A stretch of DNA of 64,000 bases from Escherichia phage P1. The stretch lies in sequence record AF234173.1, one strand, 5' to 3'. How positions within the stretch are numbered: the first letter of the stretch is position 1; each line of letters starts with the position of its first letter. Under the pieces are notes generated by a model. That model was given only the letters and a program-made list of their open reading frames with translations. It did no database searches and was not told the DNA's origin. Below are positions 1,468 to 2,637 of this stretch, one piece after another. The translations under genes were made by a program, and so were the position numbers.

Positions 1468-1517
1468 CCATTAACGCGTAAATGATTGCTATAATTATTT
1501 GATATTTATGGTGACAT

Positions 1518-1829
1518 ATGAGAAAGGATTTCAACATCGACGGAAAATATGTAGTGCTGTCTGTAAGCACTAATATTCAGTCGCCAGCCGTCATTGTCAC
1601 TGTAAAGCTGAGCGATAGAATGCCTGATATTGACTCAATATCCGTTGCGTTTCCTGTCAAAAGTATGCGTAGTGCTGAACATTTCGTGATGAATGCCACC
1701 GAGGAAGAAGCACGGCGCGGTTTTGCTAAAGTGATGTCTGAGTTTGGCGAACTCTTGGGTAAGGTTAACAATGTCCTTTCAATCAGTTCAGCAAGGTCCA
1801 AAGCGTTAACAGCTTCCATGATGAAATAA
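1518..1829 (+). CDS. cra: Small protein downstream of cre (Cra-like), function unknown
   Basis: 103-aa ORF directly after cre; symbol from memory of the P1 map. Confidence 0.45.
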   Translation: MRKDFNIDGKYVVLSVSTNIQSPAVIVTVKLSDRMPDIDSISVAFPVKSMRSAEHFVMNATEEEARRGFAKVMSEFGELLGKVNNVLSISSARSKALTASMMK

Positions 1830-1835
1830 AAAAAA

Positions 1836-1854
1836 GCCTGGCAAGGAGCCAGGC
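1836..1854. terminator. Hairpin GCCTGGC-aagga-GCCAGGC after cra, preceded by an A8 run
   Basis: Perfect 7-bp stem; no U-tract on + strand, U-tract on - strand. Confidence 0.35.
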
Positions 1855-1961
1855 TGCACAAAAGAGCGGGTTTGTATTCCGCATCCAATCAATCAAGAAG
1901 GAGTATAGCACACAGGTACTGAAGTGAAAAAATGTGATTCGCGATAAACAAAATATCTATC

Positions 1962-1991
1962 ATTGCTCTAATTGATTGCTATAATTGAGCC
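1962..1991 (+). promoter_or_regulatory. Two overlapping C1-operator-like sites (ATTGCTCTAATTGATTG and ATTGCTATAATTGAGCC) with embedded TATAAT; putative ref promoter/operator (Op2)
   Basis: Match to the C1 operator consensus ATTGCTCTAATAAATTT with 3-4 mismatches; the 13-bp GATTGCTATAATT is also present at 1484-1496. Confidence 0.5.
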
Positions 1992-2045
1992 GCAGTTTTT
2001 GTCAACTACGAAGACGTTGCCATTACTTCACTCCTTGACATCATT

Positions 2046-2071
2046 GGCGGCCATTAGGCCGCCTTTTTTTT
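2046..2071 (+). terminator. Intrinsic terminator-like hairpin GGCGGCC-atta-GGCCGCC followed by T8, in the ref leader
   Basis: Perfect GC-rich 7-bp stem plus 8 T; ends 5 nt before the ref ATG. Confidence 0.6.
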
Positions 2072-2076
2072 GCCAT

Positions 2077-2637
2077 ATGAAAACAATCGAACAAAAAATT
2101 GAACAGTGCCGCAAGTGGCAGAAGGCAGCCAGAGAACGAGCGATCGCTCGGCAACGGGAGAAGTTGGCTGATCCGGTCTGGCGAGAATCTCAATATCAGA
2201 AAATGCGGGATACTCTCGACCGCCGTATCGCTAAACAGAAAGAGCGCCCACCAGCCAGCAAAACGCGGAAAAGCGCGGTAAAAATAAAATCTCGTGGCTT
2301 GAAGGGGAGAACACCAACGGCGGAGGAACGGCGCATCGCCAATGCTCTTGGCGCTCTCCCCTGCATTGCCTGCTATATGCATGGAGTAATATCTAATGAG
2401 GTGTCTCTGCACCATATCGCCGGTCGTACCGCGCCGGGTTGTCATAAAAAGCAATTGCCACTTTGTAGATGGCACCACCAGCATGCAGCTCCGGCTGAAG
2501 TAAGAGAAAAATACCCATGGCTGGTCCCTGTTCATGCCGATGGTGTGGTTGGAGGCAAGAAAGAATTCACCTTGCTGAACAAGTCAGAGATGGAGTTACT
2601 GGCTGACGCCTATGAGATGGCAAACATCATGCACTAA
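2077..2637 (+). CDS. ref: Ref recombination enhancement function (HNH-type endonuclease)
   Basis: 186-aa product from ATG 2077; HNH-like motif (HHIAGRTAPGCHKKQLPLCRWHHQ); the longer 221-aa ORF in the track starts at TTG 1972 inside the promoter region. Confidence 0.85.
   Translation: MKTIEQKIEQCRKWQKAARERAIARQREKLADPVWRESQYQKMRDTLDRRIAKQKERPPASKTRKSAVKIKSRGLKGRTPTAEERRIANALGALPCIACYMHGVISNEVSLHHIAGRTAPGCHKKQLPLCRWHHQHAAPAEVREKYPWLVPVHADGVVGGKKEFTLLNKSEMELLADAYEMANIMH

Follow-up and report, generated by a model that had tools for sequence, protein, structure and literature searches.

The ref locus and its operator-promoter region

The window analysed here is the whole stretch of 64,000 nucleotides from Escherichia phage P1 (AF234173.1), and the feature annotation was taken from AF234172, which is 100% identical over positions 1400-2700 and carries the same numbering. 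In this region, ref (2077..2637, plus strand, ATG at 2077) is annotated as encoding a 186-aa RecA-dependent HNH nuclease, and two GenBank entries from work of 1988 cover its surroundings (M23246 for 1808-2063 and M27041 for 2004-2723). Upstream of ref and on the same strand, AF234172 lists the sigma-70 promoter P2ref (1957..1985), the C1 repressor operator Oref (1962..1978) and a promoter P1ref (2017..2044) marked as 'predicted', and it holds no terminator feature there. P2ref combines a -35 element at 1957-1962 with the -10 hexamer TATAAT at 1980-1985, giving an expected start near G1992, and its TATAAT is kept in every P1-group, JK004-group and ref-less locus compared. From this start, the ref leader 5' of the terminator (1992..2045, plus strand) is predicted to fold into a 5' hairpin (about 1992-2020) followed by a single-stranded CU-rich stretch, and leads into the hairpin GGCGGCC-ATTA-GGCCGCC (2046..2063, plus strand), with arms at 2046-2052 and 2057-2063 and a loop at 2053-2056. 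The T8 tract that follows (2064..2071, plus strand; U8 in the RNA) would be the terminator tail and possibly a U-rich contact for the ribosome or S1, and a GCCAT spacer (2072..2076, plus strand) without a Shine-Dalgarno (SD) sequence separates it from the ATG. The hairpin, T8, GCCAT and the ATG were all confirmed by direct sequence reading where the initial annotation had put them, and the hairpin with its T-run (2046-2071) thus stands between P2ref and the start codon. The predicted P1ref (TTGCCA-N16-(TG)aCATCAT, plus strand), which was also found by an independent scan, adjoins this hairpin, as it ends two bases 5' of it.

The operator-promoter region was first described as carrying two operator-like ATTGCT sites (1962-1967 and 1975-1980), and both are indeed present; however, when an operator is taken as a 17-bp asymmetric match to ATTGCTCTAATAAATTT that is kept in relatives, only the site at 1962-1978 qualifies and the one at 1975-1991 does not. 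Oref (ATTGCTCTAATTGATTG, plus strand) carries the annotation 'monovalent C1 controlled operator', matches the consensus at 14 of 17 positions and has a core, ATTGCTCTAAT, that is near-invariant among relatives; this core motif is itself enriched in the 64-kb window, with 5 copies against 0.15 expected. The second ATTGCT repeat (1975..1991, plus strand) matches at 11/17 positions, has no operator annotation and is variable in relatives (ATTGAT, ATTGTT, CTTGCT, GTTGCT, ATCGCT and ATTTCT). This repeat is best read as the sequence that supplies the -10 hexamer, and not as an operator. In addition, the 13-mer GATTGCTATAATT at 1974-1986 has a second copy at 1484-1496, and while this duplication stood, the gene behind it is c8 (1518-1829) and not cra (207-428), as had been proposed. 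This other copy corresponds to ATTGCTATAATTATTTG (1485..1501, plus strand), an unannotated position with 13/17 matches to the consensus, and the site is conserved in 164 loci, in which the adjacent spacer is hypervariable. The 1485-1501 site is a probable unannotated C1 operator combined with a -10 element in front of c8. Note that the heptamer CGATAAA occurs at 1941-1947 of the window, and that H-NS binds the ref 5' regulatory region, which has an H-NS site CGATAAA (PMC4713147).

The leader hairpin and its conservation

The hairpin was recovered on the plus strand by an independent terminator scan, with 7/7 G-C pairs and a dG of -15.0 kcal/mol. Under strict criteria (a mismatch-free stem of 6 bp or more, with 5 or more G/C per arm and 7 or more T in the 8 positions directly after), both strands of the 64 kb contain 4 distinct sites of this grade when 0.03 are expected from Markov-1 simulations, which rules out a chance match. 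A repeated generic terminator cassette was also ruled out, since the hairpin sequence is unique in the window. Moreover, the idea that the hairpin serves only to end the c8 transcript fails to explain its position 3' of P2ref, and is at odds with JK004, where the hairpin is present and the operator abuts the stop codon of the upstream gene. A search of the leader against the known RNA families of Rfam gave only sub-threshold matches, which were driven by the terminator. The predicted element has the traits of an intrinsic terminator, namely a GC-rich stem-loop with a direct T8 and a conservation that concerns structure and not sequence.

Conservation was followed in 71 oriented P1-like loci, PLSDB matches included, which were located by a conserved 15-mer that lies 5' of the promoter and outside the feature, a choice made to avoid a bias toward the hairpin, and the leader alignment comprised 27 unique leader variants. 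The hairpin is present in 68/71 loci, in 20 unique variants, and its 14 stem positions do not vary, save for occasional C-to-T substitutions in L038, L032/L021, L098 and L115 that leave a G·U pair. Five versions of the 4-nt loop occur (ATTA, ATCA, TAAA, GAAA and GCAA), and the T-run has a length of T7-T9 in ref-containing relatives and of T6 in ref-less ones. Indeed, a number of P1-like plasmids and phage contigs lack ref and match P1 only to about 2069, as in pEA18_2 of E. albertii (L002) and pMTY1886_NA2 of E. coli (L003). These ref-less loci keep the operator, the TATAAT, the leader, the hairpin (GGCGGCC-GAAA/GCAA/TAAA-GGCCGCC) and T6, followed by a convergent KilAC-type antirepressor gene whose stop codon lies two bases after T6. 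The ref-less class with this unit accounts for 11 loci of the set and for 5/60 evenly sampled PLSDB rows; besides L002 and L003, the unit without ref was seen in L057, L065, L087, L089, L097 and L119. Other ref-less variants (L004, L005 and L067) break at about 2026 or 2008 and have lost the hairpin. In these alignments, the hairpin travels with the promoter and not with ref.

A panel of divergent loci, obtained by searches with Ref and its homologues, extended the comparison to other Ref lineages. In the JK004 group (L126, L212, L213 and L214), in which JK004 Ref shares 65% identity with its P1 counterpart and the upstream genes are different, a C1-type operator (14-15/17) abuts TATAAT, and a leader of ~70 nt carries GACGGTC-TTCG-GACCGTC with T8, located 10-13 nt from an ATG or GTG with a weak SD (-2.4 to -4.0). 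A Pantoea phage-plasmid (L130/L285) has the operator TTTGCTCTAATAAATTT (16/17) and GCCGCC-TCCG-GGCGGC with T7; its leader has only 21 nt, and 94 nt separate T7 from the ATG, which has a weak SD (-3.6). Both preserve the layout seen in P1, from the operator and TATAAT through the leader, the hairpin and the T-run to ref, although their stems differ in sequence. The predicted terminator is therefore conserved as part of the ref cassette under C1 control and is not a P1 idiosyncrasy. The D6-like loci (L127 and L291-L302), L287-L290 and Buttiauxella (L131/L286) have no C1-type operator and no hairpin, and their SDs are mostly stronger (-2.9 to -5.8). Among 16 representative hairpins, 99.1% of the cells are paired and 3/7 pairs are changed on both sides, a covariation that is partly ascertained across lineages because those hairpins were located by structure; the single changes in the stem are all G·U, 0/500 shuffles reach the observed value and no slid register comes close. 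That ascertainment does not touch the position of the hairpin, which is the same in each cassette, nor the finding that changes inside a lineage are limited to wobble pairs.

The start codon of ref

The weakness of the ref ribosome-binding region, which had been noted from the sequence, is borne out by its best anti-SD duplex of -1.5 kcal/mol (positions -20..-4), the weakest among 49 annotated P1 CDS (median -6.0 kcal/mol), which does not exceed what random positions give (median -2.1 kcal/mol). The spacer variants GACCAT and ACCTT are also devoid of an SD, and no gain of an SD was found in any variant compared. In contrast, the suggestion of a leaderless-like initiation had to be dropped, as no promoter is placed for a start at A2077: there is no -10 element ~7 nt 5' of 2077, where T8 GCC is found, and the predicted starts are at ~1992 and ~2051, the nearest being that of the predicted P1ref (~2049-2053).

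Other routes to Ref synthesis were also rejected. An N-terminal extension from the in-frame TTG codons at 1972, 2017, 2035 or 2044 is broken by indels in relatives (GTTGCC to GTGCC, GCC to GACC, and T7/T9) that have no consistent compensation, and the Ref N-terminus aligns at M1 with the JK004 and D6 homologues. Since these uncompensated indels shift the frame of the upstream TTG codons, the leader is to be read as non-coding and ATG 2077 as the ref start. Coupling of ref translation to an ORF that would end at the ATGA overlap (TGA 2078-2080) was discarded, given that the stop at 2036-2038 is followed by no start codon in that frame. A leader peptide was likewise rejected, as the P1 leader has none; in the JK004 group, 3/4 members have mini-ORFs that end at a UGA overlapping the hairpin, and these are without SDs. 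Finally, an SD brought close by hairpin folding, as for T4 gene 38, does not fit a segment 5' of the hairpin that is CU-rich and not purine-rich. Altogether, the relatives compared showed no conserved start codon 5' of ATG 2077, and neither a leader peptide nor a leaderless start is conserved among them.

Probable attenuation of ref and competing readings

Our results make it fairly probable that the hairpin and T8 constitute a functional intrinsic (Rho-independent) terminator in the ref leader, acting as a leaky attenuator. Transcripts would begin near 1992 at P2ref, under C1 repression, and would meet the terminator about 55-80 nt downstream of this start; read-through from cre/c8, if any, would arrive at the same terminator. 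One fraction would end at ~2069-2072 and yield an RNA of roughly 80 nt, and the remaining fraction would read through and give the ref mRNA. Translation from AUG 2077 would then proceed without SD pairing, probably inefficiently, and initiation would probably rely on an unstructured A/U-rich context, with U8 on the 5' side and AAA ACA AUC GAA CAA AAA on the 3' side. We infer termination at T8, as well as the terminated fraction and the manner of ribosome recruitment. C1 repression together with two dampers (the terminator and the SD-less start) would hold down the level of a RecA-dependent nuclease that harms the host. A rationale for damping ref is that native Ref inhibits the establishment of lysogeny and that the SOS response is triggered when Ref is expressed (PMC4713147).

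The attenuator of ref has been known since 1988, and the present work is a confirmation and not a discovery: a paper by Windle, Laufer & Hays (1988, J Bacteriol 170:4881; PMC211533), listed as reference 18 of PMC4713147, announces 'attenuator-antiterminator control' for ref in its title, and the attenuator named in that title concerns the same DNA as studied here. What is new here is the comparative evidence from other Ref lineages and ref-less orphans, i.e., a predicted terminator that is conserved in the C1-controlled cassette of three Ref lineages and persists without ref, which is a modest addition to the 1988 finding and opens no new kind of mechanism. Of the attenuation, read-through and antitermination first proposed for this leader, an attenuator with read-through is retained, given its location 3' of P2ref, its conserved structure and its recurrence in two other Ref lineages, whereas regulated antitermination is equivocal, as the alternative pairing it needs is predicted but exceeds shuffles only modestly and is lost in variants of the P1 group.

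Published expression data bear on how tight this terminator can be. The ref transcript rises 73-fold after c1ts induction (PMC4713147), and RNA-seq of P1vir at 10 min gives ref a logFC of 8.3, about 19th of about 107 genes, next to 7.6 for c8, 7.5 for ssb and 5.1 for mat (PMC8201110 Table S1). Such robust early ref mRNA implies that termination is partial, relieved or bypassed during infection, and tight termination in infection could be upheld only with a very strong P2ref or with a bypass. Note that the published RNA-seq is at the gene level only, and that no genome-wide P1 TSS or term-seq literature was found. Expression of ref would pass through three serial filters (C1 repression, the leader terminator and the SD-less start), a view that helps to interpret ref phenotypes and to engineer P1; Ref also underlies the phage-antibiotic synergy with ciprofloxacin (PMC4713147).

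A regulated attenuator, in which read-through is conditional, is a possible but doubtful refinement. Here, GUUGCCA (2016..2022, plus strand), a candidate antiterminator strand whose bases are also the -35 of the predicted P1ref, could pair with UGGCGGC (2045-2051) and block the terminator, and a third pairing (the 5' end with 2018-2020) or a further factor would select the structure. For a P1 transcript that ends before the 3' arm, 6/7 bases of the 5' arm indeed have a predicted pairing probability of about 1. The JK004 group offers an analogous ACUGUCA:UGACGGU (AACTGTC in 4/4 members), with arms almost fully paired in the fold and shuffle controls at p about 0.01-0.04, and the two arm positions that differ between the lineages are matched in the upstream strand. 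However, the P1 pairing is not significant against shuffles (p about 0.07-0.10), the folding energy favours the terminated structure by 8.5 kcal/mol (-23.4 vs -14.9 for the antiterminated one), and the strand varies without compensation in the P1 group (AUGGCCA, G-AGCCA and G-UGCCA), for which the consensus fold contains the terminator only. The JK004 ACUGUCA also looks homologous to P1 UGUCAA, which pairs with UUGACA 5' of the terminator and not with the arm, and the 21-nt leader of Pantoea leaves no room for such a strand. The ref leader resembles the attenuators of the trp/pyrBI type by a promoter-proximal GC hairpin and U-tract before the gene, with a possible exclusive upstream pairing, but differs from them by the lack of a conserved leader peptide (no other sensor was found in the leader either) and by its weak antiterminator. 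It also recalls the terminators of the lambda N/Q type, which separate an early promoter from the phage genes behind it; early control in P1 nevertheless runs through C1 operators, unlike that of lambda by N/Q, and we know of no P1 antiterminator protein. Relief of termination would suit the robust early ref mRNA, and the wording of the 1988 title (Windle et al.) also favours this type of control.

It is unlikely that the predicted P1ref accounts for most ref mRNA by a start inside the hairpin, such that an incomplete hairpin escapes termination and the terminator mainly stops P2ref and upstream transcripts. Judging from the position of its -10, P1ref would start at about 2049-2053, in the 5' arm or the loop, and this bypass would account for the abundance of ref mRNA early on, even with a strong terminator in the leader. 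The promoter is annotated, and the independent scan finds the same TTGCCA-N16-CATCAT with a TG extension; yet it is only a 'predicted' one, it is absent from JK004 and Pantoea, both of which have the terminator, and its -35 is degenerate in some P1-group variants (GTGCCA, TGGCCA and GAGCCA, with a spacing of 15-16). In addition, P1ref is equally kept in ref-less plasmids, where it has no gene to serve, and a C1-independent promoter is hard to square with the 73-fold induction mentioned above (PMC4713147).

Another reading, which we hold improbable, sees the hairpin and U8 mainly as a translation initiation element, with U8 as a landing site for S1/30S that replaces the SD. In P1, U8 ends 5 nt from the SD-less AUG, and in the JK004 group it ends 10-13 nt from the start; the T-run is also longer before ref (T7-T9) than in ref-less loci (T6). 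The model case would be E. coli rnd (RNase D), where, as in ref, a terminator-like GC hairpin and eight U lie just 5' of the start codon; Zhang & Deutscher are said to have found in 1992 that the leader hairpin and U8 of rnd are required for translation, and the U-tract is reportedly implicated in ribosome binding. The rnd gene, however, is said to retain an SD and to use a UUG start. The T7 of Pantoea is 94 nt from the ATG, and the unit persists without any downstream gene, both of which speak against a role mainly in translation. Furthermore, A/U-rich enhancers were reported to contribute little where the SD is weakest (PMC2176067). Note that a landing site of this kind is compatible with the terminator and does not exclude it.

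Finally, the terminated leader (about 1992-2071, roughly 80 nt) might be a stand-alone C1-controlled small RNA, made upon induction or infection and acting in trans, with ref as a read-through passenger; this proposal is quite unlikely. Such an RNA would combine a 5' hairpin, a single-stranded CU-rich anti-SD-like seed and a terminator, and the U-tail of the latter could bind Hfq. The motif in question, TTCACTCCTTGAC (2027..2039, plus strand), borders the hairpin, stays single-stranded in the leader fold prediction and is common to P1 and the JK004 group (TTCACCTCCCTGAC in JK004), in which the rest of the leader has diverged; its CUCC recurs in L212-L214. However, Pantoea has no CUCC motif, the hairpin is wholly lost in the ref-less L004, L005 and L067, no match to an Rfam family comes near the gathering score, and the anti-SD-like 7-mer matches so many SDs that target prediction cannot discriminate. 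Module exchange at the terminator is also a sufficient, mundane explanation for the unit in ref-less elements, where the hairpin adjoins the stop codon of the convergent gene, though there is no U-tract on that strand.

The precedent is StxS of the Stx-phage PR'-tR' region, in which an intrinsic terminator lies no more than about 80 nt behind a phage promoter and before the gene it controls, and in which the short terminated RNA that results from the early stop at tR' can be a product in its own right (PMC7547250). PR' is constitutive and relieved by the Q antiterminator, whereas P2ref is controlled by a repressor. As for an StxS-type RNA, the P1 promoter, its short leader and the predicted terminator persist as a unit without a downstream ref, and this survival, together with the shared CU-rich segment, is the reason why the ~80-nt leader could be such an RNA. 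If true, it would explain why the unit is intact where a convergent antirepressor module has replaced ref, and the ref-less persistence of promoter, operator, leader, hairpin and T6 provides a concrete lead toward a possible P1 small RNA.

Putative control elements on both sides of c8

Between the cre stop codon and the c8 ATG, the sequence ATTGCTATAATTATTTG (window 1485-1501) matches the C1 operator consensus at 13 of 17 positions and contains a perfect TATAAT. The site is absent from the AF234172 annotation, which puts Pc8 at 1394-1425. An equivalent site is conserved in 164 related loci, mostly as ATTGCTCTAATT, which is a perfect operator core, and in these same loci the 18 nt immediately 5' of it are hypervariable. 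The 1485-1501 site probably serves c8 as a true promoter/operator under C1 control.

On the other side of c8, the non-coding stretch of ~100 nt (window 1827-1930) that extends to Pref, the C1-repressed ref promoter, is near-invariant across 217 loci, including those that lack ref. Its minus strand carries a promoter-like site, TTTTCA-N17-(TG)cTATACT (1930-1902), whose hexamers are kept while the spacer varies among loci, and a terminator, AGCCTGGC-TCCTT-GCCAGGCT followed by T8 (1855-1827), which ranks among the four strongest of the window and in which variation is confined to the loop. The stretch is a candidate for encoding a minus-strand RNA of ~70 nt, convergent with c8; no matching family was found in Rfam for this putative RNA.

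The Pref operator and the ref leader

In several loci (L002, L211/L045, L005, L119 and L089), an inverted repeat flanks the Pref operator and its -10 element, at the equivalent of window 1950-2000. From variant to variant, the arms of this repeat change in concert (AGCCAC..GTGGCT, ACGGCT..AGCCGT, TGCCAT..ATGGCA/G and AGCCAyT..ATGGCT); in P1 the repeat is present only in a weak form. Its 3' half doubles as the first part of the P2ref transcript, at the 5' end, and can base-pair with the leader GCCAU.

Three of the four leaders of the JK004 group, a divergent Ref lineage, contain a mini-ORF immediately ahead of the terminator hairpin (L126, 1434-1463; L213; L214), with a length of 4-9 sense codons. 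It starts with ATG or TTG without a Shine-Dalgarno sequence, and its UGA stop codon overlaps the first base of the hairpin; no such leader mini-ORF was found in L212, the fourth member, or in P1.

Replacement of ref, and a second hairpin in the mat region

Some P1-like plasmids of E. albertii and E. coli carry, in place of ref, an icd-like gene and an opposite-strand gene for a KilAC-domain antirepressor (L002, 2742-4072; L003, 2742-4024), with the breakpoint exactly 3' of the T-run of the ref-leader terminator. Further mosaic breakpoints lie at ~2026 (L004) and ~2008 (L005).

A second case of a hairpin and T-run right ahead of a start codon was observed in the 2787-2827 region, where AAGCCGCC-GCT-GGTGGCTT is followed by TTCTTTTTTG and then, 3' of these, by a strong Shine-Dalgarno sequence (TAGGGGGCGCT) preceding the ATG at 2827. 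The mat start differs between records, being 2716 in AF234172 versus 2827 in OP279344. If mat starts at 2716, the hairpin lies within mat; with a start at 2827, it would be placed after LPmat/Pmat and ahead of mat, with the potential to terminate ref transcripts too. In gene-level RNA-seq of P1vir infection, ref mRNA greatly exceeds mat mRNA at 10 min (PMC8201110).
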